Made by a program: the position numbers and the translations under genes. Below the pieces are notes generated by a model. It had not been told where the DNA came from and did not search any database. It saw nothing but the letters and a program-made list of their open reading frames with translations. A stretch of 60,671 bases of DNA, counting the filler, from Dugesia japonica (taxonomy: Eukaryota): NCBI GenBank assembly GCA_001938525.1. It is 4 parts of 4 records of this genome, joined end to end, with 100 filler letters (N's around TTAATTAATTAA, not from the genome) between each part and the next. Parts side by side here need not be neighbours in the genome. Positions count along the whole stretch, not along the records: positions 21,915 to 50,161 come from MQRL01638510.1; positions 50,262 to 60,671 come from MQRL01602829.1; 2 more parts are not named here. One strand, 5' to 3'. Position 1 is the first letter of the stretch. Every line of letters starts with the position of its first letter. Below are positions 27,498 to 57,000 of the stretch, piece after piece.

Positions 27498-27503
27498 TAT
27501 AAA

Positions 27504-31778: not shown

Positions 31779-32496
31779 TCACATACATACACAACATACA
31801 CAACAAGTAATATACAAAACAAATATGAGCAAATAACAATCAGAACGTCCAGCATCACAATCAACCAACTCAATCAATCAATCAATTCAAGCAATCAATC
31901 AACTCAAAATCAATAAATTTTATCTGATTCAATTTTACTAATTGAAACTCTATTTGATCTGATTTGATGTTAACCAAATTGACTTTGTTAAATTGATTTA
32001 TCATAAAATATGTTATTTGTAAATTTTTTTTTATAATATTTCATTTGTAGAATTTTCTATGTAATTAAAAATATCTTATTTATAAAATTGCATATTGCAT
32101 GATAAATTATTTATTAAAATCATGAACAATTATTTACCTAAATTATCAACAAACAATTATGTATAATTTGTAATTTATTGAAATTATCGATTAATAAATA
32201 ACTAATAGAAATTTTTATATATAATTTATCTGTAATAATGGAAATTTATATCAACGGAAATCTTTATGTAAGTTTTATTTATTCTGTAAAATTTTGTAAT
32301 AATAATATTAAAATCATGCATGCCGTATTAGTATAAATAGTGATTAAAATTTTAGTTGGACCTTCTGAGATCCACAACAAAAAGGTTAAAAATCTTGAAG
32401 TAGATAAATTAAAGTTTTGTAACGAAATTTTGTGTTGAATTACATATTTTTTAAAAGAAAATCTTTGATTTTATTAAATAGAACGACTATATAGCG

Positions 32497-32525
<29 letters not shown>
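32497..32525. repeat. (TA)n microsatellite
   Basis: Direct reading. Confidence 0.9.
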
Positions 32526-32528
<3 letters not shown>

Positions 32529-32695
32529 AATATTATTGTATTTATAATAATATTAAGGTATATAGGATTCTTTATCGATAATAATATATTGGGATTGTTT
32601 TCGCAAAATATTATTAAACTCACGCAAAGTTGATTTATTTTAGCAAAATCCCCCAAGGTATCTCAACAATACTTTATATTTTTAAAATGTTTAAA

Positions 32696-33148
32696 TCATT
32701 TTCTTGTTTCATTCTTTTCAAAATCAGTTGCTTCATCTTCAGATAATTCATCAAATAAATATTTAGTTTCTTTTTCTCTCGATTTTAAAACACGCTCTTG
32801 TTGTACTCCACTATTAAAATAAGATCTTGCATGGTTTTGTCTAGTGAATGTTAAATTGCAATAATTACAATTTAAGGCANCTCTAGACCTACCATCATCT
32901 CCACAATTCGTGGAGTTTTTATGCAATCGCAAGCCTTTTTCACTTGCTAATCTTTTGAAACAAATGTTACATGTGTAATAATCGTGTACCGATCTTGCAC
33001 AGGTTCGAGATTGAATATGTGACGACAACCCCGCGTTATTTTTAAAAGTCTTGTTACAAATAGAACATTTAAAAATTAACGCTGAAACACTCATAGGTCT
33101 TTGAAAATTCATATTTGAGATTTGCGTTTCACTTGNGAAGCTACTCAT
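32696..33148 (-). CDS. C2H2/C2HC zinc-finger protein
   Basis: CSICNKTF....GLSSHIQSRTC, CNICFKRL....GLRLHKNSTNC, CNYCNLTF...NH; acidic tail. Confidence 0.75.
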   Translation of the reverse strand: MSSFXSETQISNMNFQRPMSVSALIFKCSICNKTFKNNAGLSSHIQSRTCARSVHDYYTCNICFKRLASEKGLRLHKNSTNCGDDGRSRXALNCNYCNLTFTRQNHARSYFNSGVQQERVLKSREKETKYLFDELSEDEATDFEKNETRK

Positions 33149-33199
33149 TTTATAAATAAATAATTTGGTTGTTTAAAAAAATAACTACCTTAAAGGTTC

Positions 33200-34326
33200 T
33201 TATTTTGAGTTAGATGTGTTTACTGTGTAATTTGCTAAATCGCTTTTAGCTGCGTTAACTCTTTTTATTTCTACTTCATATTCTTCCGAAACTTTTAATC
33301 TTGTTAATCTTTCACATAAATCATCACTATTTTCTTTTATTTTTTTAGCAATATTAATACAATCTTCATTTCTAATAATTAGATCATCATCTTCTTCCCA
33401 ATTTATCAATGTAAGTTTTAAACCTGCATGTTCAATAAATTTTGGTTTTTGAGCTAAATTTAATTGTTCCCTTAACTTATTCTTTTCATCCATTTCTTTT
33501 TGGTAATCAATTTCCAATTGTTTTATAATTTCAATATTTCTTGCGTCTTATTTAGAAAATTGATTTATTAATTTACTCTTACATTCTGATTCACAAAATT
33601 TAGAAACCATAATACTTAATAATATTTTAAAAATTTCACATTCATTAAAATTTTCGACTTGTAAATACATTTCCTTTAAAAGAGCTAAATATGTTTTTGC
33701 TGTTTTATTTGTAATTTCACATTTGGCAAAACTTTTAATTTCCATGATAGTAAATTTTTCAAGATTTGCTAAATTTTTTATACTATTATATAAAGTATTT
33801 ATACCCAAAACTTCTTGTTGTTTTGGGTTAAGAACAACTTGTTTTTACTAGCCATTTTCTTTACTGAAAAATTAAAATTCTATAATTTCTTCCGAACAGT
33901 ATTTTCAACAACTTTTAGAAAATCTGAATCAGTCATTTTACGATAATCTATTTTGGGTTTTTTTATTTGTTGATTTTGTGTTTGTTGGTTTTGAATAGGT
34001 CTTATAGAACTTTGATTTTGTGGTTTAGGAATTTGGTTTTGACTTTGCAACCTCTCATATCTTTGTTTTAAAGATTCATATTAACCATTATTATTTCTTT
34101 TTAAAGTTTTAATCTTTGTTCTTCTATTATAAGGAATATTAAATTCTCTTAAAAATTTTCTCACTGTTTTTTCACTTAAGTTATTTTGTATGGAAAAACC
34201 CAAAACTGAATTTTCAATAAAATTATAACTTTTTAAGAGTTTATAAAATTCTGCTTCAGTTGTATCTAATTTATTCATATTTTTATTACTATTACAAGAC
34301 ATTTTTAAAAATAAAAAATTTAACAC
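33200..34326 (-). CDS. Three uncharacterised ORFs (33200-33517, 33548-33808, 34081-34326), possibly fragments of one or two disrupted viral genes
   Basis: Codon style, packing and strand match the Polinton genes; no recognisable domain. Confidence 0.45.
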
Positions 34327-36049
34327 TATACTATTTCACTACACTGTTTTTTATAATGTATTTACTTAATTCCATACTATTTTTCCATACTTTTATTCCT
34401 TACTTTAATTTTTTTTACTTTAATTCTATACTTTTTTTCATATTCTAAGTTTGTATTAACTCATTTTTAATATGTTTTTCAAAATTAAAAAAATCTAACA
34501 AATTTAAAAATCAAACCAACAGCTCAAGTAGATGTAAAAATACGGTTTCCCGAGAAGTTGTTTATTTATATTCACTATACACTATTTTTTCCAAAGACAT
34601 ATATGTACGTGAAGAAAGATCACAATCTCGATGGGAAACTGTTTTTTTTATCTACTAGGCACGAATAGAGAATCGAATTCTTAGAGAAAACCAAGAACAT
34701 TGGCACCAGCATTAATGAGAAAAAAGAATCAAAAAAATAAAAATAAAAGGCCAATAGCAATTGTGGCGTGTTGTAAAGGAAATGGTATAAAAACCCCTTG
34801 ATTTTAGTAGAAAAACAACCAATTTTCTTTATATTTTAACTGTTGAAAAGCTGCACGACTTAATTTAGAAATCGATCTTATAAACTCGGAAAACGTTTCA
34901 TCACTAGTTGAATAATCACCGCTAAAGTAATACAACTCTAAACGAATTTGAATGTATTATTTAAATCAGAAAAGCAACTGCTCTCAATAATACTTTTGGA
35001 AAGTAATTGGATTACCGATTCAGTAGAAAATAAGAAGAATTAATACTACGAAAAACCCGTTGCAGAAAATCCTAAGAAAGCAAATTGAAGTAATTATTGT
35101 TGTATTTATTTAATGTTGTGTCATGAAGGTGTTTTACTTTTCATAATGATAATTTATTCAATAATAATACAACTTATTGATTTAAATTNAATAAATAATA
35201 TNTAGATTTTTTAAATAAAAAAATGGACAATCAAAAACCGTTTTATTTTTAGAAAAAGTGTGATATGACATTCACCTATTAATCAATTCAAAACCCAAGT
35301 GATATCGACTGTGGTAACAATCGTTTTCCATTCATAATAGTTATACCTGATAATTACAGTGTTCACCTTCTATTTCAGTAGAAAAGTGAGACTGAATACC
35401 ACTGATCCGTCCAAATTCGAGATTGTAGATAACTCTGAGTTAATTCACATACGAATATGAAAAACAACGAGAACCAGGATACAGCTTTCTTTTTTTTGTC
35501 TCAGAAAATTTAGATGGAATTGCGTCAACGACTCATAAGTGAATACGGTGATGACTTAAAGGGTCAATGTGATGAGCTAATCTTCAATAGAAAAAATCCG
35601 TTAAATATTTCCAACCGTAGCGACGAAACTAATAAGATGTAGTTATCATAAATACTCTTAGTATGCACTAAAAAGTTTAAGAAGTGAATAGTGACAATCA
35701 AATTCTTACCTGATAAAAAATTGCTTGATTTTAATTGGATCCCTATAATATAAGAAAATTAAATTAAATACATAAAATCTTACTTAAAAGTTTAACAAGT
35801 GAATTTAATATTAAAATCTGAAAAAGATAGAAAAATAAACAAACACACAGCAAGCACACACATACACACACACATTGTTTTCAAAAAATAACTAAGTTTT
35901 CAAAACTTTAAGTGCTACAATTTTAAAAATGAACTACGAAAATTATGAAGCAATTTCAAGTGCGAGTTCTGACTCAACAGAACCCTACAGGCTTTCAAAA
36001 ATCCGTTCAAAGTAATTCTTTCATTTTTAATTCATATTTATTATATTTT

Positions 36050-36142
36050 AACAGGATTTCTGCTGTAGACAAAGAACGGATCATAAAAGCTTATGAAGAG
36101 GGCAGAGAATTGAAATCTGTCAGCGAAATTCTAAATGTGTAG
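36050..36142 (+). pseudogene. Tc1/IS630-like transposase HTH fragment
   Basis: ISAVDKERIIKAYEEGRELKSVSEILNV. Confidence 0.4.
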
Positions 36143-37488
36143 AAATTTTTGTCTAGAAAATGAAAAAATGTTATGCTGGATTCCAATCATGCACACACGC
36201 TAGCAGTTAAATCAACAGTCGATTACTGGACCCACAATTTTGACTCATTACAAATCTGCATTGGACAGAGTTGCATATTAGAAAAACTCGTCAGTCACAC
36301 TTACCAGTAATATCTGTAAATCTGCCAGCAATATTTTTTGTTCAGTGACGGCTTGGTTGAGGGCAATTCTGTATTAGTCTAATAACAGGACTATGAGTAA
36401 TTAATCCCATCATCTGGCACTGATAATGTTTGTAATATTTAAATTTTTAAGTAATGTAACAAAGTTATATGCAGTACCAAAACTATGTATTACCAATAGA
36501 ATCATTATCCTAGTACCAATATTCATAGGACTATTCCGGGTTATAATACTTTGGAAATGTTTATTATAATTGGTGTCATCTTAACATTATTACTATTATG
36601 GTTGTTATACGATTAATTATTATTAACCCTAATTGATCTACTATGTTTATTAATATCCACGTTATCATTAACAATCTTACTATCATTGTGAGTTATTCAT
36701 AACATTATTATTATTAGTAATATTACTGCTAATGTAATTATTATTATTGATTAATATGATCATTATTATGATTACTATTATTATGCTGATGAATATTATT
36801 GATATTATGATTTAAACAATGATCAATATGGGAATTATTATTATTATTACCCATGTTGCCACAGAGTTTATATTTATTATCATGGTCCCGACTCCTGTCG
36901 GCATCGTTATTTATTACCAACGGGACTCCCGTTATCATCGATTTTGCTAAATCTAACTAACTATGCGTTAAGTCTATTAATACCAGTAAAAGGAGTATTT
37001 ATCGACGTTAAGGGATCCTAGGACATTATTTATTGCTAATGCTAATCTATATCAGTTTGAATTAAGGAGTTCATATTGATGTGGAGTTACAGTGAATTTT
37101 AACCCTCATCTTATTTAAGAAATGTCGGCGTAGTTGAGGAACGCTTTACTCAAAATTTTGAAATAACGTCGGTCGGCACGACAAAAGCAACTCATCGGCC
37201 ACCCCCTGTTCCCGGACCTCGTAGAACACCAAGTCGAAACCGAGATGTTCCCGTTAAAATATCAGGTTGATATAGACACGGAACCTTAATTGCCATCGAT
37301 TTTGTTTAATGTTTGACATTTAATAAACTTTCATTATTTATCTTGTTCTCAACCAATTGTCTAAAATTTCACTATTAATGTTAACCATAGTTACTTCTAG
37401 CTAGGATGGAATTCAAATGAGAAATCTTAATAGACCACTGCACGGGTAGTATAGTTTTTTAACGATATCTAAACCCACATAACCGAGA

Positions 37489-39024
37489 TGTTGGGGTGTT
37501 GGTAGATCGTCCCAATCTACCTACAGAGGAGGCCGAGGATGAGCGACAATAAGACGCAGCCAAGCGTCGCGCCTTTTACGAGTGGAACGGTCCCAACCGA
37601 AAACGAGCAGTATATCATTCCACTACGGCTTTCCCCACCGATTAACAATGAGACGCGCACCACTAATAAGTGTGTAAAAGGCATTTGCCCACTTTTCACA
37701 ATCTTACCACGTTTGTACAGAATAACATCTGGAACATACACAACGACGAGGAAGGCGGAAGTTAGGAAAATACGGGTACTGTCACCAATAATGTAACTCC
37801 GTTGTAATTATTATGTTTTGAGTAGTGAATAACCAAAAAATTCCAACCATTATATTTATTTCTTATTTTATTCGTTTTCTGGCAACCATCGTAAATAAAT
37901 CAATTCACTATTTTAAATTATTGATTCTTTGTTGCGTTGTCGAATTTTCATAATTACTAACGATCTAGCTTTTATAGTGAATTCGTCATTGAATCGGTCA
38001 TCAGCTCCCACTAAAAAATGAGGGAAACGAGTGAAGACTCCGAAATAACGTGGGACTTGTATCGTCTCGTAAAGCGTCGCTTGGAGGCCGTTACGGCGAC
38101 AGCGGAAAGTAAAGCAAAAAGATATAAAAAGAAATGCATAGAGTTTCGTAGAACGGAGGCCTCCCATGCACAAGACAGACTCTGAAAAAGCCAAGGTTAT
38201 CCGGTCCCTCCATGACCGTGAGAATAAACTGGTATCAGATATTCTGTCATTACTAAAGGCTATGCATCTAGAGAGGCTAATAGTTGATAAAACCACACCA
38301 ACATCGCGGACATGACTTCTTATGTTCTTACAGTTTTGCAAATAAAAGATTTCTCGATTTATATTGACTTACTTTCCGTTTGTTTATGTTTATTTTTTGA
38401 GAATTCTTCTAATTCTAATTTGTGTCAGTATCTAGAATTCAGTTACCCACAAGTCTCCGGAGGTGTCACTGTCTCATTTAAAAATTATTATTGGAACGCC
38501 ACATTAAGCGTCAAAATGAAAGAGCCTAGTTTCGACACCTGACACAGCGCAACCGTTTAATTAAGAAGCTCGACCAAATAGTGAAAAAGCAGAGGGAGTT
38601 GGCGAACAGACTAAACAGACACTACAGCATAAGATTGACTTCCTGCAATATTATATAACAGATTTAACAATACATCTTTTGGCTCCGTTTGAACGACAAC
38701 GACGATGAAGCCGTCTTCAGCATTTTAGATGAGGAGCCTACCCAAGGGTTAGACCCGAAGGCCTCTGGATTTTATATAGAATGTCACCAAATAAATCTTA
38801 GTTTTAGTAATTTATTAATTAATATGGTTAATTTCAAATAAGGGACAATTTTGAACCCGAAACAAATGTTGCCCCTCAAATAAATAAATAAATGTTGGAG
38901 GTCAACCGCTCTACACTAAAAATCTAAATAGGGACATTAGATTAAATTCTTAAACGGGTACCCTGAGGGCTGTTTTTTCCCCAGCCATGTTTTTTCTACC
39001 ACAAACTCAGGTGGCACCCCAACA
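37489..39024 (+). mobile_element. Unclassified element copy A (TGTTGGGG...CCCCAACA) with three coding-like blocks
   Basis: 3' ~150 nt homologous to 44378-44495 and 52307-52379; block GEQTKQTLQHKIDFLQYYITDL...DNDDEAV...PTQGLDPKASG; true 5' end uncertain and may lie further upstream. Confidence 0.6.
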
Positions 39025-39960
39025 TAAAGTCTGCCAAAAAAAACAAAGAAAAATTTTTAAATTACCCACCAAAAAAATATTTTTTAGAATTTCCCGCCAA
39101 AAAATGTTTTTTTGAATTTCTCGCCAAAAAAGATTTTAAAAATAATAAGACTTTCCTCTCCCTGTTCAAAAAAAATATTAAAAACAACCTTTCCCAATCA
39201 AAAATATTCAAAAATACCATTACTTTCAATAAATTCATCATGTTAAGCTAAATACAGCATTTTTAACCAAAATAAAGATTTCAAAACATTATTATGTCAC
39301 ACACTCCCTACCGAAAAATATTTTTTAACACTTTTATACTACTAACAAATATCAATCAATCAAATTCAACCACAACCAATCAGAAATTAAAGCACAATCG
39401 ACATAACAAATATCCACCATCACATTATCTCTCTAACAACCCATCAACCAACAAAATCCAACAACTCCATACAAAGATACATTCTCTCAAAAAAGACCGC
39501 ACAATAACTCATACAACTGTGCCCGTGCGCTACCATAGTCCTAGGACATACCATCCATCCAACCTCATAAGTCCTTTAGACAATGTATAGGCAGAAGTTT
39601 TGTCCAACAACAACCAAATCTTAAAAACTCAAAAAAAATTATTTCTAAGATCTCCAGCTCCAACTCGTGTCCAAATTCACTCTTTCACACGCACACACAC
39701 TCACTCACACACAAACTCAACTTGAGATACTTTTTAAAAACCACCTTAGCAACCCAAACACACGCAAAATTTAAAAATACACACAGGATCAAAAAAATAA
39801 GATCCGATTAAAAAAAATTATCCGATCAAAAGTTTTTTGATCCCAAAAATCTTAGGAAAAACCCCAGCACAATCGTAATGTATTTCCGACCCCCCCAGGC
39901 GGGGCTCCCCCAAAATTATGAATATTTCGAATTTTGCCCGTGCGCTACTATCACACTACT
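39025..39960. repeat. Putative Maverick terminal/subterminal region ending ...CTACTATCACACTACT
   Basis: Reverse complement begins AGTAGT, typical of Maverick ends, followed by a GC-rich block; GCCCGTGCGCTAC recurs at ~39521; ~28-bp tandem units at 39065-39140. Confidence 0.55.
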
Positions 39961-40702
39961 GGTGACGAAGGTGATTGGAGAAATTTCAGGTGCAATTGTA
40001 TATTTGTAAAACATTCTGGGTTTTTCGAAGAGTAGGTAGTAACATTATAAAATCATTGACGAAGCATTGGAAAGTATTATAAAATCTGGATTGTGTAAAT
40101 CCGGAAAAAATATCAGTTCATGAAGAGTGAAATTAAGTTTTTGGAGTATATTATTTGTGAGAAAGGGGTCCAAACAGATCCGTTGAAAATTGAATTCATA
40201 AAAACATTCGGTCCAAAATGTGGTCTAAGAAATAAAAGTTGCAGTGAACTACAAGGTCATATGTAAATCGCTACTATTAATAGCGAAGTAAAGTCAGAAT
40301 CTTTAACCTCTTTAAATTAGCATATAAGATCTAAGATTTCTGAGTCAAACGATCACCAAATAAAAATAACGAATGTAAATTATTTGTTAAACCCATAAAT
40401 ATTTAAAAGTAAAACATTTTTTCGATATTAAATAGTTTAGTAAATAGTTTACCTATATATAATTTTAACAATATTTATCATATTAAGATTCCAATTCATC
40501 ACAATATATAATTAACAATTTATTCTGATAGTGAGAAAAGTTTCTTTAAAAACACGAAACGCTGCTTTATCCTTGTTATAATCGCAAAGGTATCTCAACA
40601 TATTTATTTTATTTATGGTTTTAGGAAATATATATGATTTTTATTATGCAAATACAAATATAAATTTTTTTCAACTACTATTACGAATTTTATAATTACA
40701 AT

Positions 40703-40852
40703 TATTGCGAGAATAATTGTTGNACTTAACCATTGATCGGATTTCAGATTTCATTAAAATAAGATAAAGCTTCGATCAAAACAAAATTTATTTGAACTTT
40801 TTTTACAAAAAAATTTGATTTTGATCGAAGCTTTATCTTATTTTAATGAAAT
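40703..40852. mobile_element. MITE copy with perfect 34-bp foldback
   Basis: Homologous to the reverse complement of 1661-1782; arms 40748-40781 and 40819-40852. Confidence 0.6.
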
Positions 40853-41699
40853 ACTATTGCGAATTTTTTTATTCAGATATTTCCTCAACTATTGCAATAT
40901 AATCTGAGATTTTCTGATTTCGAATATAAAAATAACTGTGATGTTATTTAAAAAGTCATTAATTTCTATATGTAATTATAATTAAATTATTTTATTATAA
41001 AATAAATTATGGAAATTTTAAAATAAATTTTACAAAAGAAACAGCTAAAATTCTTTAAGTTTGTCTCTCAAANNNNNNNNNNNNNNNNNNNNNNNNNNNN
41101 NNNNNNNNNNNNNNNNNNNNNNNNNNNNNNNNNNNNNNNNNNNNNNNNNNNNNNNNNNNNNNNNNNTTTTAATGAAATTTTAAAAATGAATGATAGTATG
41201 TTTTTAAGAATTTTTTAAACTCTTTTTTTAGTAATTAATATAATATCGAATATAAATATTAGTGAAAATAAAGAAAGAGGAAATCGTGTAGGCTTACGTA
41301 AATATGTAGTAGAAGATGTTCTATTAAACTGTGTCACATTGAAAGAAGCAAGTGCGATGATATCACTATCTAATAAATAATATAACAAATTATATAAATT
41401 TTTATTCGAAAACGTTATTTTTAAAAGTTTTTATTTGTAAGATATGTTTCTATGTATCTATCTATGTCCCTCATCAGTTAATGCAGTAAAATGAAATGGA
41501 AATTGTTTATATATTGGCCAATAAAACAGGTTACGCAATCAATCTATTAGAAGTGAATGTGTTTCCTAATTCCACTAAAATAATTACCATTAGACACCAC
41601 CGCTGTTCAAAACTGTAAACTCATCTATACTTATTTCGACTTTTCTATTTTCACAGCACCGAAAGTTTCCTATTCCATTGCATATGCTCACTAACACAA

Positions 41700-41925
41700 T
41701 ATGTAACCTTATTGTTAGATGGGTTTGAAAAACCATGCACATACAATTCCAACCAGAGAAACTGAAAAAGTAATCAGTTGCAGCATCTACATTTTGTGAC
41801 AATAATCACACTTTCACAGTGTATTCAAACAATATTGAAGTTTTAATAGATACTAGGTCACTCCGTCATTAACTATTCAAAAACAGCTCCAAAACAAACA
41901 AAACATTAACTGCCGCAAACGGAGT
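41700..41925 (+). pseudogene. Gypsy (CsRN1-like) gag end and protease fragment
   Basis: EKPCTYNSNQRN* then, in another frame, SVAAS...FTVYSNNIEVLIDTRS...KTLTAANG (LIDTG and L.AANG protease motifs). Confidence 0.55.
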
Positions 41926-42616
41926 ATGGAACAAATGGGAAGAGAGTGTATTGGACAAATTATTTGAAATTGAAGGTCGAGAATTACCGCCATTTGACTT
42001 AAAGAGAGGATATAATATTAACGAATTGATTCCTGATGTTTCGCAATTCGGACAATTTCAGTTGGATATACAAGAAAACGGTAATCATAAGATTAATGTA
42101 GTTTAATTGACGTAGACTGATCGTCGACACATTTATTTGCTGAATAGATATCAAAGAATAATCATTTATTGATAAGGTGGTACTAAAGTTGAATAATATA
42201 GAAAGAAGTGAAATTTTAATAAAATAATCGTATTTGATCCAAATAACATTCAGAATTACTTAAATGATGTAAGAAGACGTATCAAAAGGAGATGTTTCAA
42301 TATGATATTAGTTTTTCTACCAGATTATCTATTTTGTGCTGAAGTTAAATCAATTACAAAGAGAATGTGTCTGTTAACACAATGCTTTACGAAGAGGTAT
42401 TTAGACAAAGAGAATGATATAAAGAGCAATCTTGTTGTAGATAATACGACTATACAAGTAATTATTAAGCTTGGACATGATCTGAATGCTAATGAAATTA
42501 CGATAGGATCAATAATGATAGTTGGTATTAATATAAACACACAAAACATATAGAAAATAGTCAATTCAAACATCACTATTTTTAAGGAAAATTACATTTA
42601 TCAATACATGTGTTGA
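41926..42616 (+). pseudogene. Piwi-clade Argonaute fragment (L2-MID-start of PIWI)
   Basis: W....LFEIEGRELPP; MILVFLP...AEVK....LLTQC; IQVIIKLGHDLNANEITIGSIMIVGINI is colinear with Piwi/Aub IQMNAKL.G.PW.V.IPL..LM.VG.DV; several stops. Confidence 0.72.
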
Positions 42617-43492
42617 GATCTGAAAAGCAAACATTTACAAGCATACACAAATATATACATAAACATAACAAAGCAAACATACACAAGCATACAAATCCTC
42701 AATGTAATGAAAATCAATCAAGCCCAACAGTTCAGAATCAGTAATCAATTCTATGAGATCATCAGCCAAGATCAGCATTTGATATTTATTCAAATTCCCA
42801 TGCAAAATCAATAATCATTGATAACATTATTTTATAATTGAACATTTAACATTATTATTTTACTGGACTTATTTATTTTTATTTTTATGTTTTGTAAAAT
42901 AACAAATTTTAATTTTGTGAAATAACAGATTTTTCATTTATTATAATATCACGAATGAATAACATAATTATTTGACCTTATGTTTAGACAGAAAACTTTT
43001 GCACACATTTTATTTTATTTTGGACAAAATATTAATTGATTAGTTTGTGTGCGGGTTATTTCTCTAAAAATTATCTAACATTTTATGTAAATAATGATTT
43101 ATTTATTGTTCATTTATTGTGTTGCATGGTTTGGTGTGTACAGAAAAATCAGTATAAATACTGATCCTTTTTAGTTATTTTTCGAGTAACTTTTAATCAG
43201 TTGGAATCCAACCTCTCTGGGCGGCATCTCCAACTAGATTCAAAATTAGCCTATAAGGTATATAAGTTTTACAGCAAACTGCATCATTTTATATACCAAA
43301 AATAAATTGTAGAAGGTATATCATTTTAATTTATTTATATAGGGCAAATATATTATATCACCATATCTATAATTTTGAGAAAATATCAATTATATAATAT
43401 CGTATTGACAGATAAAGGGTAAAATCAACACCCGTAAATTTAGAGACATACTATCTATCAGTAGTTATAAAATAAACGAACCATAAATATCT

Positions 43493-44495
43493 TGTTGAGC
43501 AGAAATACCCAACACATGGGTTTCGTGAACAAAGCTTGTGATTCCGAAGAAATAATGGAGACGAATTTCAATCCAGGAACAGAAGAATTCAAATAATGAT
43601 ATCATAGTTTCCTGTTTAATATTAATATGTTTAAGGAAAATATAGATGAAAATCAGTTGAATTTAAAAATAAAGCTGAATTCATTAATCCATTTATTGTA
43701 AATATTTTCCTCTTTACCGCTTCACGAGTCCCACAAGTAATTAACGTTATTATTAAAAGCGATTATTCAACCAAGGATATAATCTATATCTTGGAGCCGT
43801 TGTAGATAATGTCAATGAATTTTACCTAGTCTCACAAAAATCACAGAACGTACCACAACTCCAACACTTTACAAAATCCTTAAAGAATGAAGAGTAAAGA
43901 TTGAAAAAAGATAATAATAATAAAAACAATATTCATAATAAAAATTATTATAAAAAAATAATAATGTTAGGCTAGAACGCTAAATAAATTGAAGAACTAA
44001 AAATTTCTGAACAAACGAAACTAAATACGCAAATGAACAGAAATATTGGGAACAGTGATGGACCTGAAACCAAACTTTTATTACAGCGCAAAATCGAGTT
44101 TTTAAAGCAATACATTGCTGACCTAGCTAGTCGGATTGGCAACCCAAACACAAACCAGTGGGATGAAGACGACGATATTGCGGCGATTAACTTTGTCACC
44201 ACAACCCCCGATCAATGGCTAGATCCGGAAGCATTTGGCCTAATTTAAATGTTATACTGCTAATAAATATTTTAATTAGAATTGTAAGAAATTGTTTAAT
44301 TTTCTTAAATAGTAATAGGGAAAGTATGTAGAACTCGAACTAAAGGTTTATTGGTGTGCACCTTTCATCAAGAGTAAGGTCAACCGCAGTAAACGTAAAA
44401 CCTACCACAGGGACGGTAGGCTAAATTTTTGAAGGGGTTCCCCTGAGGGAGTTTTTTTCCCCGGCCTCTTTTCCAACTCAGGTGGGGCCCCAACA
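43493..44495 (+). mobile_element. Unclassified element copy B (TGTTG...CCCCAACA)
   Basis: Starts TGTTGAGCAGAAATA; contains ORF 44033-44248; structured 3' end; abuts a truncated Maverick polB. Confidence 0.6.
44033..44248 (+). CDS. Small unknown protein of the CCCCAACA element
   Basis: GPETKLLLQRKIEFLKQYIADL...DEDDD...PDQWLDPEAFG aligns with the 38590-38775 translation despite nucleotide divergence. Confidence 0.55.
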   Translation: MNRNIGNSDGPETKLLLQRKIEFLKQYIADLASRIGNPNTNQWDEDDDIAAINFVTTTPDQWLDPEAFGLI

Positions 44496-44992
44496 GTTCT
44501 ATTATTTAAATACTCCATTGTCTTACTTCCTTTCTTACATATTTCTTCTTTCGAATAACAATTTAAACATCCATGAAAGTAACAACCATTGAATTCATAT
44601 ACGTAATGAATTTGGGTTATCGAATCATAATAATATCCGTCTAACTTGTAACAACTTATTGCCTTTTCTCCTCATATTTTGGCATATTTTATGTTTACTT
44701 TGTTGATATAGCTTAAATATTCGAGCCAATGTAAAGATTTGGAAGAATAAACATCGTCAAAGTCGGATAGTCTTGGAATTCCTATTGTATTATTATTAAT
44801 AATAGACATAAATGTTTTGGCACATACTTGCGCAATGGTAATATATTGAAAAGGATCTAAATTCAATAAATTACTATTAGGCATCTTTATTTTCATAAAA
44901 CCGTTTTGGTATATTAAACATCCTTTTGCCAATATCATCACATCTGTTAAGCAATAATAAAAATAATTTATTTTGAAAATTAAATATCTCAT
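44496..44992 (-). pseudogene. polB: Group I/alpha-type Maverick pPolB fragment
   Basis: YCLTDVMIL...DPFQYITIAQVC...SSKSLHWLEY...I.YA..GEK....KLDGY....VYEFNGCYFHGCLNC (Vsr-like insert typical of group I polymerases). Confidence 0.85.
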
Positions 44993-46399
44993 TTACTAAA
45001 GTTTCTTTGCGTCCTGTATGAAAATAACTATTTAGATTTAATCTAATTAAAGTGTGAAATACTGTATAATTATTGTATAATTCGGGTTATTATTTGTTAT
45101 ATCATCTAATATAAGTTCTAAACAAGCTTTAAGGTTTTGTTCTGTCATTATATAAGGGGAAATTGTATATGTATGAACAACGCCTCTATATTGACGATAA
45201 TAATGCGCACCAAGATGGTTGACGCGATTAAAATCATATATTATTAATTCACTAAATAAATTGTCTTTAAATTCGCGCTCTTCAAAAAGTAGACTTTTAT
45301 CTATAGCTCTCCATTCTTCTAAAATAGTATTTATGTTTGCTGTCCTTTTTTAAAAATCAAAAATAAAAATTATTTATTTATTAAAAAACTAAAATTTACG
45401 CAAATATTCCAAGTTCAAGCATAGAAATTAGAACAAATTATTTTAAAAAATAAAATTATATAAAAGCCATATTTTATGGAACTTTTTAAAAATAGCATCT
45501 ACATTCTTTTTTATTTACAAAGTTATTCATAAAATAATAATTCTGTAAATATATAAATTGTATTTGCATCATGAGAAATTATCTCATAATGAAGTCTCTC
45601 GTTTAAATAACATACTTTTGATAGCGCGACATTATTGAAAGAATAAATCAATCGAGAATTTCGGTACAACAATAAGTAATATTAAAATTAATGGTTTTTT
45701 TACTTGTCTTGAAAATCTATTCTCCCTTTTGATTTAAAAAGCCCAAAAAAGGGGGATTAGGACACATTCACTGTCAAAAGTGGGGGGACAAACGCGGGCC
45801 ACCTTATGTTAAAATACTGCAATAATATATTATGGGGGTCTCTACGACCCGTTTTCTTTATTAAAATAACGTTAAATATGGTTTAATATTATTATCTAGT
45901 TAAACTGGTTTAGTCACTAGTATCGTAAGATTTTCTGGTTTTCCAAATAATGATTCACTTGGGAAACCAGACAGTAAAAAGAAAGCACATTCATTTGACA
46001 CGAATTTGGATAATCCAAATTTAATGTCAATCAAGTTGTGTAGAAAACCCTGGAAGTAGTGGAGAGATGATGACTGTCGAAAACGTGAGGTGTGTAAATA
46101 AAGTACACTATACATCAATGTAAATCGGCTAATGATACGGATACATTTCGAGATAGAGGCAAATGATTGGTAGATCAATGCTAGCTCACTAATCTGAAGG
46201 AGCAATAAAAAATTTGAACCCGAAGACAAATTACCATAATTTCCAATTTTAAATTTTGGAATATTTTGACCAGCTAATTTATCAATTACTTGAAAATTTT
46301 GAGACAATCATTGACATCAGAAAAGACAAATCAAAATAAATCATAATTTATTTTATTAAAAATTTTATCATATTAGCACTAGTGCTATTTACAACCCAA

Positions 46400-46570
46400 A
46401 ATTCTTGAGTCCTTGTAAATAATGTCTATGAATTTTATCTAGTCTCTAAAAAATGACAGAACGTACCACAACTCTAACACTTTACAAAATCTTAAAAGAA
46501 AGAAGACTAAAGATTGAAAAAAGATCATAATAATAATAACAATATTCATAATGATAATAATAATAATAAT
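46400..46570 (+). repeat. Diverged direct repeat of ~43790-43945
   Basis: AATGTC.ATGAATTTTA.CTAGTCTC...CAGAACGTACCACAACTC.AACACTTTACAAAATC shared. Confidence 0.8.
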
Positions 46571-46572
46571 AA

Positions 46573-47290
46573 TGTTGGGGTGAAACACTCCTTTCAAAAG
46601 GAAAGCCAAACGAATGGCTAAAAAGGAGAAAAAATTCAACTCCTCGAATATCGGTTTTGAGTAACCAGTACTGCTAAATTTGGAAAAAGTGATCAAATAA
46701 AAGATTGAAATATCAAGAAGTAGATAAGAAGTTCTCATGCAAACAAATCTAACCCACATTAATTACAGTAATCAAAAGAAGTAGTGAAATTAATAATAAA
46801 AACAAGGAAAATATCATTGTAAAAATATTTAATTATCCAAAAGCAGAATTAATTTCAAACCGAAAATAAATTTAAATTAATCAAAAAATCTGTTTTTTAC
46901 AAATAACTTGATTCTGGGTAATCACAGAGACTCAGGGAAAAAAATTCGAGAAGAAAATGTTAAAAGGCATAAAAATTTCATAGCCGAAAAACTTTGCAAC
47001 CATCAGAAGAACGACCACAAGGGTTGGAAAATTGGGCCAATAAGAACCTGAACAATAAACATAAAAAAAACAACAATGATCACATGGCGTTCCGAAAATA
47101 GACACCAATGAGAGTTCTAAAACTCTGCAAAAAAATCCAAAAATTAGGAGCATTACCAATCAAAGCAAAACATTTGGAAGAAAAAATAACAACTATGCCG
47201 AGTTGCATAGGAACAGCTATTTAAACCCCCCAGAATTTAGCAGAATAATCACAAAAACAGCAACAAATTTACCCACAAGTATTTCCTACA
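46573..47290 (+). mobile_element. 5' fragment of TGTTGG-terminated element family
   Basis: TGTTGGGGTGAAACA immediately after an (AAT)n run, then an A-rich tract; right boundary approximate. Confidence 0.4.
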
Positions 47291-48779
47291 CTTTATTGGT
47301 CAAAATCGTGAATCAATATATCAATTTTGCAAACTTATAAATTTCCGAAAAAGTTGTTACAAGTTATCGCGCATTACTTTTACTAGTATTGCCCTATCAG
47401 TTGCCTAAAGAAGAAAAAGAACAGAGTAAAGCAAATCGCTGCTGTCAACCGATAATTCAAGAATCGAACCGTTTTAGTTATCCATAACTTAAATTAGTGA
47501 GTATCAATTTTTATGATTATTTGTGTATCTATTATTATTAGCAAAATGAAAACTTAATGTCGATAAAATACATTAATGTTAATCATGTTTGTAGTTTATC
47601 TTATTGATAATCAAATTATTTATATGTTCAGTGCATTAATATTGATATTCAACCCAAAATTGACCCTAACAATCGATATACTAATTTTTAAGTAAAAGAA
47701 ATTATGTTTCTTTTAAACACATACAACACGCCAAATGATTTTCAGGACAATCTATAATAAAATATCATAATGATTGCTCTTATTAANAAGCTCTTCATCA
47801 ACACATCGATAGTGTTATTAGCAAAACCCATTACGAGTAGGTGTGTTGATGCACTGAGTCATCTCCACACACTCATTTAATCACACCGGAATTTATCATT
47901 TTATCTATTAAAAACCCTTTGACAATTAACTAATTCGGCAAAAACAAAAGAATGAAGCCATCAATTACGACGGAATGCATTTCGATGTAAAATGGAAATT
48001 AATAGTGATTATATCTTTGCTGGAAATAGTAGTGGAATTTTTCATTCTAGAGGATTCTGGGGTCTCCTTCAAATATTCTTATCTAAAAGGGATATTATGG
48101 TGTGATTTTCAACTTTCGCTATTTCATACAGGTACGTAACACATTTCTAATCATCGCATGTGAGTAGAATCTACCTGGTTATCTTCGTCAACCACGTCCT
48201 GGTGAAAGACCACCGTCAACTTTCAATCATCCATATCACTCTTATTGCAAGAAATTATCCTGCTGAGTTGATCGTGAGAATATTTTTCTTTGTTATTAAG
48301 GAGTATGTATGCATTTGTCGTTATAATTAATATATCCTTTATTTGTGTCAAACAAAATTTCTTTTTTGATCAATATCGTTAATATAATTAATTGAGATAT
48401 TTGTAGGAATATTTAAGATATTGTTATTATAATTTATTATGGTCATTATTAAAATCATCCCAAATGGATTTGTCAACAAGTTTATCCCCCTTTGGGTTAC
48501 TTCCGAGTTTCACTTTTGTGGACAAAGATCTAATTTTCTGGTCATGGTTGCAATGATTTTCGTCTCATTAGGGGTTGAGAATAGAATATCTGTAATTATG
48601 AAAATAAATGGTAGAAGGCATTCTTGGAGAAAGTAAATTCATCACTACGACCAACCCAAGTAGGGTTCTAAAACGGCTCGTCACTTTTACCAGTAGAAGG
48701 TAAACGCTATTCACCCCGCTCGTGGTATGTGAACTTTTTATTCCCCATCCTGACGTTATAATGATACTAATGTATACAA

Positions 48780-50161
48780 ATATAATATAATGTAAACAAA
48801 CCTGTATCTGCTGGTTTGTGATAAATCTCTGATTCATAATGCTTGGACTTTCGTTCTATTAATAAGTCCAGGAAAAACAGTTTAGATTTACATTCCATTT
48901 CTGTAGTGAATTTAATGTTGTTATGCAACGAATTCATATAGTTTAGGAATGGGTGAATATCAACTTGGTTATTAAAAATCAGAAATATATCATCCACATA
49001 GCATTTATTCACATGCAGCTTATTTCCAATAAACAAATCAATCTTTTCCTCAATATTTGCCAAAAACAAAGAAGCTAAAGTAGGATCCAGAGGTGAACCC
49101 ATAGCAACTCCATCAACTTGTTTGTACCATTCATCATTTAACAAAAAATGTATATATGATGTAGCAAAGGTCAAAAGTTCCTTAAAGGCAGTCACAATTA
49201 ACAACGTATGCTCAGACAAATTTTTTTCCCATAATTCACAACAAAGATTAATAGTTTCATCTAATGGAACATTTGTAAATAAACTAACAACATCAAAGGA
49301 CACCATACATTCACTACAACTACCAACTTCAGTTTTAGAAATAAAATTACAAAAATCAAAGCTATCTTTGCATACATATTTGGAGTCAATCAAAGGTTTA
49401 ATTTTATTNNNNNNNNNNNNNNNNNNNNNNNNNNNNNNNNNNNNNNNNNNNNNNNNNNACAACATCAAAGGACACCATACATTCAGTACGACTACCAACT
49501 TCAGAGTTAGAAATAAAATTACAAAAATCAAACCTATCTTTGCATACATATTTGGAGTCAATGAAAGATTTCATTTTCTTATCGAAAAACTTAGCAAGAT
49601 TATACTGAGCTGTGTAAATTATGGATAACTTAGGTCTCATAGGAACATTACTCTTATGGACTTTAGGAAGACCATACAACTTAGCTGGCTGTGAACCAAC
49701 CACTTTAAGTACCTTATACAATTCAGAATCAAGAATTTTATCACTGATTAATTTTTATAATAAACCATTCAAACTTTGATTGGTAGCAATTTACTATTTT
49801 TACCAAATTTATTAATTTTACAAATTGCGGTTCTTTCAAAACCTCCTCTATTTTACTTAAATATTCAAAATCATTCAAAGTTACAAGATCATTACCCTTA
49901 TCAAATTTACAAATTTTTATTGGTTTTTGGTAGAATTTTTTAAAATATTAAAATCACTATAACTTTGTTTAAAGTTTTTGTTTAAATATTCATTAGAATA
50001 TTTTAGTAACGCATGTTTTAAATTTCAAAAATTACAATCAAAGTTTATTCCATCAAATTTAGTCAAATAAATTTTAAAAATGACTCTATTTTAGATTGAA
50101 ATTGAAATTTATCAATTCTTTTTATAATACCGAATTTAGTTCCAAATTTTTATAAATTTAT
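48780..50161 (-). mobile_element. Penelope-like element reverse transcriptase (truncated)
   Basis: DKGN; LYGLPKVHK..VPMRP; MVSFDVVSLFTNVP; QVDGVAMGSPL; YVDDIF; IKFTTEME; FLDL. Confidence 0.92.
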
Positions 50162-50261
50162 NNNNNNNNNNNNNNNNNNNNNNNNNNNNNNNNNNNNNNN
50201 NNNNNTTAATTAATTAANNNNNNNNNNNNNNNNNNNNNNNNNNNNNNNNNNNNNNNNNNNN
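50162..50261. other. Artificial scaffold-joining spacer
   Basis: 44 N + TTAATTAATTAA + 44 N. Confidence 0.9.
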
Positions 50262-53200
50262 TTATCAATTTGACTTAAAGCTGCATCTATTCTATCAAAG
50301 CTGGTATCAGTATCCAATATAAGTTCTTTAGAAAAATTCGGAAATGCTAAAACTGGAGCTTTCATTAGTTTAGCTTTCTAATTTTTAAAATAAATTTCGC
50401 ACTCATCTGTCCAGTATATTTTTTCCTGGTTACTACCACATAGGTTTTCTAAACCCTTTGAATACTTTGTGTAATCCTTTATAAATTTCCTATAATAATT
50501 TGCGAGGCCTAAAAAACTTCTCAACTTTTTAACACATTTTGGGGTTTCAAAATTAAAAATTGCTTCAATTTTTGCACTATCAGTATGGATTCCTTTTTGA
50601 ACTAATAATATTACCCAGAAATTTTATCTCGTTTTTCATGAAATGACATTTAGATGGACTTATTTGTAAACCAGCTTCTTTTATCCGTTTCAAAACATTG
50701 CCAATTCTCTTATAGTGTTCTTTAATAGTTAACATTAAAATATCATCTAAGTAAACCACTGCTTTCTTCCAATTTAATGGACCTAAAACCTTATTCATCA
50801 ATTTCTGAAAAGTAACAGGAGCAGCTGCAATTCCAAAAGGCATTCTATTAAAATAATATTGCGCACCTCTTGTCGAAAATGCAGTTTTGCATTTTGAGTC
50901 ATCTGTTAATTCTACTTAATAGTAAGCATTATCCAAATCTATACTAGTANNNNNNNNNNNNNNNNNNNNNNNNNNNNNNNNNNNNNNNNNNNNNNNNNNN
51001 NNNNNNNNNNNNNNNNNNNNNNNACAATCTATAATCTAAGCAAAGTCGTATTTCATCATTGTCTCGTTTTTTAACGCAAACCAAAGGAGCATTCCAAGGG
51101 GAGTCACATTTACTTATCATTCCATTTATTTCCATTTCTGTAATATTTTGTTCAATTTAATCTATTAAATGATAAGGTTGACGCCTAGGATTAATTGCAA
51201 TTGGTTTACTATCTGTTATTATTTCATGTTTTANNNNNNNNNNNNNNNNNNNNNNNNNNNNNNNNNNNNNNNNNNNNNNNNNNATTTCCTCAGTGTTTGG
51301 AATAGGAAAAATTGGTCTTTCTGTAACTTTATTTAACAATCTATAAACTAAGCAAAGTTGTATTTCATCATTCTCTCGTTTTTTTCTCAAATCAAAGGAG
51401 CATTCAAAGGGGAGTCAAAGTTTAGTCAATCTTATCTATTAAATGATAAGGTTGACGCCTAGGATTATTTGAATCAGTTTACTATTTGTTATTATTTCAT
51501 GTTTTACAATATTAGTTTTTCCAATATCCCAATTATGTTTCAATATAATGCCTTTATATTTTTTAAAATCGACAATATAATTTATCTTTAATATTTTCAA
51601 TTTCTAATGTTTTGGGTTTAAATTTAATTACATTAACAGATTCTTCATTAATGGTGAGTTTTATATTAAATTTATTCAATAGATTTATTCCACAAATAAG
51701 AGGTGTTGAGATTTCTTTAGAAACATAAAAATAAATATTCTCCATTTTTCCATTAAGCTTTACATTTAAAAATACTTTTCCTACAATTTCTAAAGAACTA
51801 TTGTTAAGTAATAATAAGAGAGAGAGAGAGATAAGTAATGATATCAAATTATGTATTTCACAACAATGCTATNNNNNNNNNNNNNNNNNNNNNNNNNNNN
51901 NNNNNNNNNNNNNNNNNNNNNNTTAATGGTGAGTTTTATATTAAATTTATTCAATAGATTTATTCCACAAATAACAGGTGATGAGATTTCTTTAGCGCCA
52001 TAAAAACAAATATTCTCCACTTTTTTATTAAGCTTTACATTTAAATATACTTTCCTACAATTTTTAAAGAACTATTATTCGCACATTTGACATTTATATC
52101 AGAATCAATTATTGAAACATTTCCTATTCTTTTTAATAATTCATATTTAATACCACTAACTTTAGCTCCAGTATCAAGTAAACATGATGTAACAATATTA
52201 TTAATATTTAAATTTATCATAGGTCAATTATCTAGGGTATTATAGTTTTCAGAACTTTCTTTATCAAAATTAGTAATAATTGATAAATTATTTTTATCGT
52301 TATAATTGTTGGGGTTCCACCTGAGTTGGAAAAGGCGTGACTGGGGAAAAACAGTCCTCAGGGGAACCCTTTCAAGAATNNNNNNNNNNNNNNNNNNNNN
52401 NNNNNNNNNNNNNNNNNNNNNNNNNNNNNCATTTCCTATTCTTTTTAATAATTCCTATTTAATAACACTAATTTTAGCTCCAGTATCAAGTAAACATGAT
52501 GTATCAATATTATTAAATTTTAAATTTATCATAGGTCGACTATCTACGGTATTATAGTTTTCATAATTTTTTTTATCAAAATTCTTAATAATTGATCAAT
52601 TATTATTATCATCATAATTATCATTACTTCTATAATTATTTTTATTATTAACAATTATATCAAGTATAACATCATCACACAAAAATATATAACAAAAATT
52701 ATTTGCAAGAAATTCAATAACATACACACATTTACAATCATTATCAATCATTCAATTGTTGCTCAAATCAAATCTTACATTTTTTTAATGAATCCCCCCC
52801 GACAACTTCCTCTCTTGGAAGGGCTTTGGCTTTTTGGAATTGATCTGTCATAGTTCTGTCATCATCTGTCATCAAATCATCTGAATGTTCATCGTTTGTA
52901 ACAACATTGTATTGACGATAATCTCTTTTCATCTCCCGTATATCATAGCATTCATGTTTAAAATGTCTAGGTCTGTTACACTGGAAACATTTTACATCTA
53001 GACAATTAGCTCGGACATGTCCTTCTTCTTTGCATTCCTAACATGGTTTAGATCTTTGTGGAAAACTATTGCCTGTTCTCTTAAATCCTCTTCCGTCAAA
53101 ACGATTAATGGATGCATTTGAATTAACATATTTTCTGAAATTCGAATATCGATTTCTGTTGTTTTCTACTAAATTATACCTTTTAAATGTGACTGGGCGA

Positions 53201-54023: not shown

Positions 54024-57000
54024 TTTAACACTTGGAATAAAACTCATCGAATGGGTAAACCAAAACCGAAAAACGAGCTCAAAGATATAAACTTGGAGTT
54101 AAGTAAGCAAATACTCAAAGTAACCACAATTATTGTTAGTTTTACGTAATTAAAATATAATTAATCGTTGCATAATATTTAAGGATCCACCTTTTGTTAT
54201 TGGTTTAAGAAAGGATGCTAATGGAGTTACTCCAAAATCACCTGATGCTTGGGATGGATTTTGTATTCAAATATTAAAAAAGATAGCAACGGACCGGAAT
54301 TTTAGTTTTACAGTTGAAGAAGTAGAAGATAAAAAATATGGAGAAGTTGTTACCGAGGATGGAACTAAAAGGTGGAATGGTCTTGTTGGGGCCCTTATAC
54401 TTCATGTTTGAGCTTCTATAAATTTGTAAAATATTTATTAAATTTCTAGAAAGCAGATTTAGCGGTATCTTCTTTAACTATCACATACGACAGAGAAAGA
54501 GTTATTGATTTTACTACNNNNNNNNNNNNNNNNNNNNNNNNNNNNNNNNNNNNNNNNNNNNNNNNNAAAGAAGTTGAGCTATTTTCATTCCTTTCTCCTT
54601 TATCAGTACCTGTAAGTCTAAATAAATTTCTCCAATTCTTAAATTTAGATAAAAATTTAAATAAATTTAGATAATAATTTAGATAAATTTAGATAATAAT
54701 TTCTGAATTTTCATTTTAACACGTTAATCATATTCTTCAGATATTAGCGTGCAATGAAACATTTGATTCTTATAATTATAATTTTTATGTTATTACATAA
54801 TTTTTGATCAAATAATCCATTGAAAAAAATAAAAAAAATAATCAAATTGAAAAAAATAATTATAAATTATGAAAACATAAATAGAAAAATAAATGCAAAT
54901 GAATTAAATCGTGTAATTTCTCCAATTATAAGCATAAATGTTAATGAATCTATTCAATAAAGAATTTTTCGCTGATCATTATTAATACAGTTAAAACTTA
55001 GCAAACTTTATTCCAAACAATAAATTCTAAAAACAAGTATAATTTAAGTGTTTCATCATAGGTTTCGAACCGCATCACTGAATTTCAAAAATGTTTTGTC
55101 AAATTTCATCATCAATCAGTTTTTTCGATAGAGAATTTTTCGCTCATTGCGAATTACATGGTTACAAATTGTGAAAACTTATCCATGATTAAAACAATGG
55201 TAAAAAACAATAATTTTTTTAAAATTAATAGTCATCCGGGAATATTAATATTAGAATTAAATGTACACTAGTCAATAATAAAATAACAAAATAAAAAGAT
55301 AAAGTTATTTTTCTATAAAAATTTATTTAAATAAAAATTTGTTGACTGTCTAAATCGCTTCATTGACATCTTTATTGGAAATCTTAANTTAAAAAATTAA
55401 TAATTTCAAAATTAATTAATTAAAATCATAACTTCTATATTGTCTGGTTTGTAGCTGAGTCATTTATTACGAGATAAAATACTCTAATGTCCGTATGGTA
55501 ACCTTATGCTATTACTTGTCTAAACTCTATTATCGTTATTATTAGTTAGAAAAGCTTTTGGACCCTTCTAGTTCCCATTCTCGCCGAGATCGATTGGTTA
55601 TTATTATAACAAACCAGATACGTCTGATGTGTTAAGATTGTATCTTTCAATGTTACACCCTTCGCCTTCATGCTCTACTTTTCACTTAGCAAACTATAGC
55701 ACTCGATATTTTTACCCTTATTTTTATCTTTAAATTTAACGACTACTGAATTCAAGTTGCTACTGTATAGTAAATAATCTGTACTATAGTTAGATTGTTT
55801 TAATAGATTATCTCTTATCATGAGATCTAGTGGTTTCCCTAAGGGCTTTTATTTTTTTATCTTTTGGCTTTTATTCCTGGTTTCTACCTTGTTGAGGACA
55901 TAATATTCTACTTAAAATACTCTATTATTATCTACTAGTGGAGCGTTGTCTGTTAAGTATTGTCTACTCAAATCTTTTTAATATAGTTCATCACATCTTT
56001 TGTTTGTATTGACTTCTTCATCTACAGTTGCATGTATTCGATTACTTCTGTTTCCTGGCCCTCCTGTAGTCACAAAATTTTCAGTTGTTCTTTTCATTTT
56101 CAAATTAGTGTAGACCTTTTCTGCCCTATGTCTACCGTTTCCACATCGTTCACACCTCATCTCTTTACACAACCTTTTAATATGGCCCACCTATCCACAA
56201 CCAAAAAATTTTGTTGGTTTTTTATCCGGGCAAACAATCAATTTTTTATGACAAGTCCAATACTGTACTAATTTTTTATCGGAAAACTTTCTTTAGTATG
56301 ACAGATCTTATGTCATAACCAAAATTCACTATTTCGCTTTTTATTCCTTTGATCTACAATCATACTCACTGTATGATTTACAGGTTTCAAATAATTTCGA
56401 CTGGTAACTCTGGCGTAACTTATAACTGCATCAATTTAATTTCTTCTTTTTTCTACTCGATCTACTAAAGTCATTGTTTCTCCAATTTTTTCAATATTGT
56501 GTCATTTCCGCAAAGTCATATCTTCTTCAACGTTTTGTTATCTGAACAATATACTAGCATATTTGCTACTTTTTTTTCTTCAATAAAATCTTCATTCACT
56601 AAATCTTTTGCGTTCTTAAAATAAACTTGAATCTCTTCATTGAAATGCAATAACCCTAAACATTAATTTATTTTGAAAAACTCTAGCTAATCAAGAATAT
56701 TATATCTCACAATGAGCAAATTTGGCACTGTTGTATGTATATTTTTTTAATAAATGCCGAAATACCAGTTTTGAGCCAACCTAATGACGGTATCGTTACT
56801 GTCGGTATTGGATGCACTAGTTTTTTGTGATTACAATTACTAATTTTTAATCATACTGGAAAAATATTAAGAACCCAATTAAATTTTTTTTTAAATTATA
56901 TTATGAATTAATATTAGAAGTTACTGATTACATCATAAAGCGGAATAATGTATTTTGTAAATTTTAAATATTTTAAATAAAAAATCACTCACCATTGCGA

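Follow-up and report, generated by a model that had tools for sequence, protein, structure and literature searches.

Diverged repeats with a common 3' terminus and a conserved orphan peptide in Dugesia japonica: possible long terminal repeats of a Gypsy-like lineage

The window analysed here, a stretch of 60,671 nucleotides (filler included) joined from four parts of the Dugesia japonica genome assembly GCA_001938525.1, holds three copies of a diverged repeat, referred to as A, B and C, which have the same 3' terminus and integrase-type ends. The two longer copies, A and B, encode a small orphan peptide that is, judged by its codon pattern, under purifying selection over a long divergence. We favour the interpretation that A, B and C are orphan long terminal repeats (LTRs) from a Gypsy-like lineage not yet described, whose LTR itself would encode a small accessory protein, and would give it an even chance of being correct. 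The copies are LTR-like, yet we do not file them as proven solo LTRs, since the test for target site duplications (TSDs) failed. An initial annotation of this DNA had proposed an unclassified repeat with TG...CA ends, either a coding solo LTR or a gene carrier. The diverged repeat, the integrase-type ends and the orphan peptide stand, while the family shrinks to three copies only and the start of B had to be moved. The evidence comes from the window itself, from searches of libraries and from a list of sequencing runs; cited articles are drawn on in excerpt throughout.

Copy A occupies positions 37489-39024 (+, 1536 bp), copy B 43965-44495 (+, 531 bp) and copy C 52307-52379 (-), of which the final 73 bp alone are present, the remainder being lost to an assembly gap. 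Comparison of the window with itself placed the common 3' end at 38899-39024 in A (+), 44377-44495 in B (+) and 52379-52307 in C (-), with pairwise identities of 73-81% over 80-128 bp (E 2e-8 to 1e-12). All three copies terminate exactly in CCCCAACA, at the positions given in the initial annotation (39024, 44495 and 52307, minus), and the DNA beyond it is unrelated among them. Using nhmmer, the homology between A (38601-39023) and B (44060-44494) extends over about 430 bp (E 3.3e-20), and no further candidate in the window is tied to A, B or C. The final 435 bp of B are homologous to A and the 5' parts of the two copies differ; the GC content of A is 0.39, compared to 0.27 for the window. A is partly present in 10 of the 24 listed sequencing runs, and six of them hold 0.47-0.60 of its words. 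These six runs come from three studies of one organism, and one of them may be the source. Because part of A is present in six runs from three studies, the copy is not an assembly artefact; the listed runs holding A include no RNA run and give no evidence either way on expression.

The three 3' junctions lie in three unrelated contexts, one of them within a Gypsy element, which rules out a part of a Maverick/Polinton with a fixed position. C is inserted in a Gypsy copy between the gag zinc knuckle and a retroviral-type protease immediately downstream (Pfam E 2e-4), and a paralogous stretch at 52430-52700, 90% identical, continues without the insert, so that the junction is clean. The earlier claim that all 3' ends abut mobile elements holds for A and C. 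For the right flank of B it comes down to a presumed likeness to Maverick polB in its motifs, with no match in Pfam, PDB or viral-contig searches. The right flank of A terminates at 39955-39960 in (ACT)2, the end motif of Mavericks (PMC8097293).

In B, the open reading frame (ORF) of the peptide spans 44033-44248 (+), encoding 71 amino acids from the first ATG in a frame open from 43988 (43988-44245). Its counterpart in A, at 38601-38769 (+), comes in two pieces (38601-38699 and 38692-38769) separated by a frameshift near 38680-38700; both align to the open frame of B with scores reached by 0 and 1 of 2000 shuffles, respectively. As noted in the initial annotation, the peptide has been kept despite DNA divergence: 25 of 59 aligned residues are identical, and 19 of these 25 are encoded by different codons. 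Codon positions 1, 2 and 3 are identical at 30, 40 and 17 of the 59 aligned codons (Fisher p 1.3e-4), a pattern repeated in an alignment made from DNA only (37/70, 48/70 and 31/71). Synonymous sites are saturated (proportion of synonymous differences, pS, about 1.0), the corresponding nonsynonymous value, pN, is 0.37, and pS-pN exceeded zero in 1000 of 1000 bootstrap replicates. The initial annotation had left room for a neutral dN/dS and for the ends of ordinary LTRs. The former is refuted, as the peptide is under purifying selection; as to the latter, neither blastn nor nhmmer matched A, B or C to the LTRs (~200 bp) of the two Gypsy elements of the window (10206-13303 and 13475-18136). Given that A is frameshifted, selection would have acted on replicating ancestral lineages and not on the A locus.

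The B peptide consists of a heptad helix (L-I-L-I-L-I), an acidic linker and a C-terminal LDPxAxG motif (Q.LDP.A.G), and the hydrophobic residues at 4-3-4-3-4 spacing are retained in both copies. It has no hydrophobic membrane segment. A single-sequence structure model of B reached a mean pLDDT of 61.9, with the most confident helix at residues 25-50 (about 80 over residues 31-50). The coding region is located about 250 bp from the 3' terminus, and both this spacing and the intervening sequence are kept in A and B. An AATAAA hexamer, a candidate poly(A) signal of weak significance in AT-rich DNA, follows just 3' of the peptide region in A (38790-38795, +), with a counterpart at 44262 in B.

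Searches for homologs came back blank, with the caveat that host proteins may simply be absent from the libraries. Comparison of the B peptide with proteins of near length yielded two candidates, none at E<=0.1, and an alignment of B with the A pieces against longer proteins yielded 1106 candidates, none at E<=1. Among 1.84 billion representative proteins there were no matches at E<=0.001, and an exact sequence look-up recovered none of four queries. Seven peptide pieces of A and B fell into no Pfam family (weak coiled-coil-type matches at E>=0.078), and PHROGs and a PDB sequence search gave no peptide match or homolog. The B peptide had no usable match in the ESM Atlas, and Foldseek, with the low-confidence model as query, found no relative in the PDB and viral libraries. 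A protein search of viral contigs listed 31 stretches, 0 of which were confirmed, and a pattern scan of viral contigs had 0 matches. Pattern matches in metagenomes (3) and viral contigs (4) were discarded as chance, the similarity ending at the pattern and the peptide being absent. The upstream decayed coding-like stretch of A (38015-38315, +) matched none of 20 longer candidate proteins, and its ESM Atlas hits were unnamed look-alikes (0.90-0.93, with 113-147 of 256 features in common). A further small ORF near the 5' end of A (37539-37796, +; 85 amino acids from ATG) is a candidate gene. In agreement with the initial annotation, neither A nor B gave a Pfam match to a reverse transcriptase, integrase or transposase. 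An Rfam scan of 36500-45000 at E<=1 returned three sub-threshold matches, none on A or B. The open-access literature contained no description of such an element that we could find, and the excerpts of PMC11410931 and PMC8532177 hold nothing on LTR ends; Repbase and Dfam were outside this search, and the element may already be named in a curated repeat library.

The ends of the copies conform to the TGTNR pattern of Gypsy LTRs (PMC2836005), with inverted repeats of only 6-10 bp: a perfect 10-bp repeat, TGTTGGGGTG...CACCCCAACA, in A, and TGTTRG ends in B and in a further unit, H. The 5' end of B carries the motif TGTTAGGCTAGAACG after an (AAT)n tract. A 15-nt motif, TGTTRGNNTRRAACR, has four exact matches in the window (20941, 43965, 46573 and 60353) against 0.07 expected, the pattern having been chosen post hoc; allowing one mismatch adds a fifth at 10045. 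Neither 37489 nor 43493 is among these matches. The initial annotation had listed 43493 as a 5' end of this type; B most likely starts at 43965, giving the length of 531 bp. Its other proposed 5' ends, at 20941, 46573 and 60353, did not hold up as family members, their units being unalignable to A or B beyond the 15-nt motif. Two of them show the 5' motif only: D (46573-46587, +), which follows an (AAT)n tract and matches the start of A in its initial 10 bp, and F (20941-20955, +). The one-mismatch site, G (10031-10045, -), lies beside an (AAT)n tract and has no peptide homology. D, F and H were also considered as carriers of the peptide in their 5' regions and rejected; among 45 pairs of 150-nt ends, none scored above the cut-off set by shuffling. 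A suspected decayed copy at 9844-10041 had to be dropped: 80 of 300 shuffles scored as well, and a profile run against 2005 six-frame chunks found A and B only. TGTTGGG is enriched in the window (13 occurrences, 2.9 expected). A wider group of elements with TGTTGGG-type ends is probably present, with membership established for A, B and C only.

Unit H (57964-60353, -; 2390 bp) combines the 5' motif of B with a different CCCAACA 3' end and a 4-bp TSD, AAAT. It is possibly a distant relative of A, B and C, and its membership is not established. Fourteen end pairings were tested for TSDs and two matched, namely H (AAAT/AAAT), for which the chance expectation is 1.6% for one pairing, and a long-range pairing that is artificial. 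No TSD brackets A or B, in line with the earlier failure to confirm any, and the other flank of C falls in the gap. A GC-richer unit at 19106-20940 (-), with decayed coiled-coil-like coding sequence, adjoins the start at 20941; its CCCAACA end at 19106 is similar to the 3' end of H (ATCAAAA.CCT...CCCAACA).

How could orphan LTRs of this kind have arisen, and what would the peptide do? We propose that the integrase of a full-length parent element recognised the short, att-like motifs at the ends, that (AAT)n tracts were frequent targets of its insertion, and that the internal region was lost afterwards. In a region so dense in transposons, neighbouring copies could then have recombined or undergone deletions between them, which would explain the unmatched flanks at A and B. 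An LTR promoter would drive a short polyadenylated RNA encoding the peptide, most likely a coiled-coil adaptor that self-associates or binds a host or Gag partner through its zipper, with LDPxAxG as a candidate docking motif. Such an adaptor might aid expression of the element or particle assembly. We infer the parent element, the transcript and the role as an adaptor. Besides the TGTNR ends with their short inverted repeats, several observations agree with orphan long LTRs: a single short 5' motif occurs across unalignable units together with more than one type of 3' end, the complete Gypsy elements of the window, like B, D and G, are found at (AAT)n tracts, both ends and a 4-bp TSD can be recognised in unit H, and in A and B alike the coding region is followed by AATAAA.

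Other observations weigh against orphan long LTRs. A simple solo LTR is expected to carry a TSD, which neither A nor B does, and the TSD of H is one match among 14 pairings in a unit whose membership is not established. The start of A does not fit the 15-nt motif, and its left flank (36900-37488) is compositionally A-like and resembles decayed coding sequence, so that 37489 may not be the true boundary. No primer binding site follows any of the 3' ends, no G-rich polypurine tract (PPT) precedes any of the 5' ends, and the window holds no pair of copies around gag-pol. A PPT-like tract followed by TGTAG is internal to B. Finally, the function suggested for the peptide derives from a single-sequence model and two sequences only.

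The internal tract, which the initial annotation had missed, points to a possible, if doubtful, alternative: the real LTR would be the last ~170 bp, A, B and C would be 3' ends of a Gypsy-like element whose internal region closes with the peptide gene, directly ahead of the PPT, and the apparent 5' ends would belong to other nested elements. In B, the purine tract AGGGAAAG (44317-44331, +) is followed by 2 nt and TGTAG, a candidate PPT and start of a 169-bp LTR. We scanned 58,744 bases for a purine run of at least 8 with at least 4 G, followed within 2 nt by TGTNR. This pattern has five matches. Two of them mark true junctions between PPT and 3' LTR in the local Gypsy elements (13099 and 17929), and one lies in B (44327), 169 bp from the end. 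A retains the purine block AAGGGA at the aligned place (38840-38845), but continues with TTTTG at 38849, an LTR start lacking TG. A short LTR would also remove the expectation of a TSD, and the coding-like left flank of A could then belong to the element. It would, on the other hand, turn the 10-bp inverted repeat of A and the 5' motif of B into coincidences, and about 3 kb to the left of A and of B contained no further 170-bp unit. A candidate second short LTR left of A (37095-37170, nhmmer E 0.11) was rejected: at least 8 of 704 background windows scored better, and the three-copy profile misses it. With this candidate not above background and direct repeats absent from the interiors of A, B and H, the copies do not qualify as TRIM or LARD elements, which have two direct terminal repeats and a short interior.

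An unlikely explanation holds that the units are non-autonomous gene carriers with very short inverted ends, each mobilised as a whole by an enzyme encoded elsewhere, either a Gypsy-type integrase or a Ginger-like transposase; B would be an internally deleted copy. The window alone cannot separate a coding solo LTR from such a carrier. In favour of the carrier, two ends can be defined for each of A, B and H, which lack internal direct repeats, and TGTTGGG is enriched in the window. One-ended events of DNA transposons, together with adjacent deletions, would account for the missing TSDs. Ginger transposons have the same TGTNR termini and non-autonomous derivatives (PMC2836005), but their terminal inverted repeats measure 40-270 bp, compared with 6-10 bp here, and no CCGG/CCGT TSD of 4 bp or RTATAY target is present at the flanks of A, B or H; both features argue against Ginger1 and Ginger2. 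Moreover, the two ends of the copies are asymmetric and LTR-like, and strong selection on a cargo peptide would be easier to explain in an autonomous lineage. Helitrons have a 5' TC, a 3' CTRR and a short subterminal hairpin, and were dismissed given that the ends found here are TGTT and CAACA and the hairpin measures about 60 nt. DIRS, Ngaro and Crypton elements encode a tyrosine recombinase (YR), have inverted terminal and internal complementary repeats (ITR/ICR) or split direct repeats, and leave no TSD. The lack of TSDs fits, no YR or split repeats occur in the copies of the window, and a partner could be located elsewhere.

We consider it improbable that the copies form a self-contained class of mini-elements, i.e. 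units of 0.5-2.4 kb that have att-like ends and an RNA hairpin at the terminus, need no internal region to move, parasitise a Gypsy integrase, target other mobile elements and encode their own selected coiled-coil protein to interfere with or recruit the helper. The hairpin in question (~60 nt; 38956-39019, +, in A; 44434-44491 in B) is present in all three copies and stops ~5 nt before the end. Its inner stem differs in sequence among A, B and C and keeps its pairing; relative to shuffles it is clear only in C (z -3.76, compared with -1.28 for B and -1.13 for A), and RNAalifold reported two-sided changes in 0 of 13 pairs. It folds on both strands and therefore carries no information on orientation. 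Distinctly improbable is a captured host exon, with the peptide stemming from a host gene family and its selection signal from host paralogs: decayed Piwi-like fragments (weak) beside B and D suggest that host-gene debris is common, and a host orphan gene would likewise lack database homologs, but the conserved ~250 bp of spacing and sequence in A and B suggests that ORF and terminus diverged together.

The genomic setting of the copies is AT-rich animal DNA in which Gypsy, Maverick-like and other elements are densely nested. Both decayed but complete-looking Gypsy elements at 10206-13303 and 13475-18136 are inserted in (AAT)n microsatellites, suggesting a target preference. A decayed Maverick-like element at ~21900-34400 includes an endonuclease VII domain inside a polB-like region (Pfam E 1e-4) and a C2H2 zinc-finger ORF. 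Left of A, a decayed coding-like stretch (36500-37270, +) has hydrophobic segments, a proline/arginine-rich tail and no Pfam match, and the 12-mer AACCGAGATGTT is present twice, near 37258 and spanning the left junction of A. Within A, a perfect branch-point-like TACTAAC followed by two TAG acceptors (37955-37977) lies upstream of the middle ORF, a decayed, charged, helix-like coding stretch in two frames (38015-38315, +) that is absent from B and has no homolog found; going by these motifs, the small ORFs of A may be spliced.

Decayed Piwi/Argonaute-like coding pieces occur at 41800-43964 and 46400-46572, the piece before D being an 86% identical duplicate, and both stretches terminate in (AAT)n followed by a TGTTRG end. 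The best PDB matches of 42212-42550 are three Piwi chains (E 0.04-0.07); at 43757-43894 we assume a likeness to the Piwi C-terminal motif, for which the search gave no Piwi match. A reverse transcriptase remnant at 48767-49754 (-; Pfam RVT_1 E 1e-8), which we take to be Penelope-like from its motifs, may truncate unit D. An ionotropic glutamate receptor is also encoded in the window (Pfam E 3.5e-14 and 7e-13), with exons at 54154-60603 (+) and introns of 44 bp and 5.8 kb, the latter containing a Gypsy gag remnant and unit H. A 47-bp inverted repeat of 94% identity at 40748-40852, with a related copy at 1707-1782, is probably the end of a miniature inverted-repeat transposable element and has a weak Rfam miRNA-like match under the gathering score. 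Short remnants at 3-308 (-) and 36050-36140 (+) are presumably N-terminal parts of Tc1/mariner-like transposases, and Pfam gave no matching family for the former. The sequence TTAATTAATTAA, flanked by N runs at 9788, 21859 and 50206, is a scaffolding linker, and duplicated stretches beside gaps (23200-24091, 49287-49580 and 51024-52619) may be assembly overlaps or paralogs.

How do these copies compare with known systems? Coding sequence in or overlapping an LTR is familiar from retroviruses, where MMTV sag, HIV nef and foamy-virus bel occupy U3/R and are kept by selection on the element. Unlike these, the peptide shows no sequence or fold similarity to them that we could find, the host is an invertebrate, and no envelope gene is seen. 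Among LTR retrotransposons, the long LTRs of the plant Del/Tekay elements conserve short att sites (PMC4029996), and the LTR subfamilies of crapaud in Podospora vary and recombine in their 5' half around a conserved 3' part (PMC10787394). A, B and C resemble both in their TG...CA ends, att-like motifs (one 5' type, several 3' types), variable 5' part and size range of 0.5-2.4 kb. In contrast, the available excerpts describe no selected protein-coding ORF inside those LTRs, and here A and B lack a TSD and no parent element is seen.

Small selected accessory ORFs are already known from Gypsy elements (PMC11952523; PMC6431247). In the MDG1 group (412, Mdg1, Stalker and Blood), sORF1 and sORF2 are small (70-110 amino acids), lineage-restricted, of low dN/dS and expressed from a short transcript that has a poly(A) site of its own, much like the situation proposed for A and B (PMC11952523). 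By description, the two differ in that the sORFs precede gag, sORF2 acting as a transmembrane fusogen, whereas the peptide of A and B is encoded near the 3' end and has no membrane segment. The giant Burro elements of planarians are likewise Gypsy-like, with accessory ORFs and long terminal regions in AT-rich invertebrate genomes (PMC6431247); no Burro domain was detected in A or B, and this likeness, again by description, is a lead only. If the LTR measured only 170 bp, the peptide would be another 3' accessory ORF of modest interest, and if the units move alone, they would represent a new class of integrase parasite. If the copies are orphan long LTRs, their parent lineage would be Gypsy-like, from an invertebrate, and carry a protein-coding gene within the LTR, so that each solo LTR disperses a ready mini-gene through the genome; the orphan protein, for which the codon pattern already shows selection, would then parallel retroviral sag or nef.

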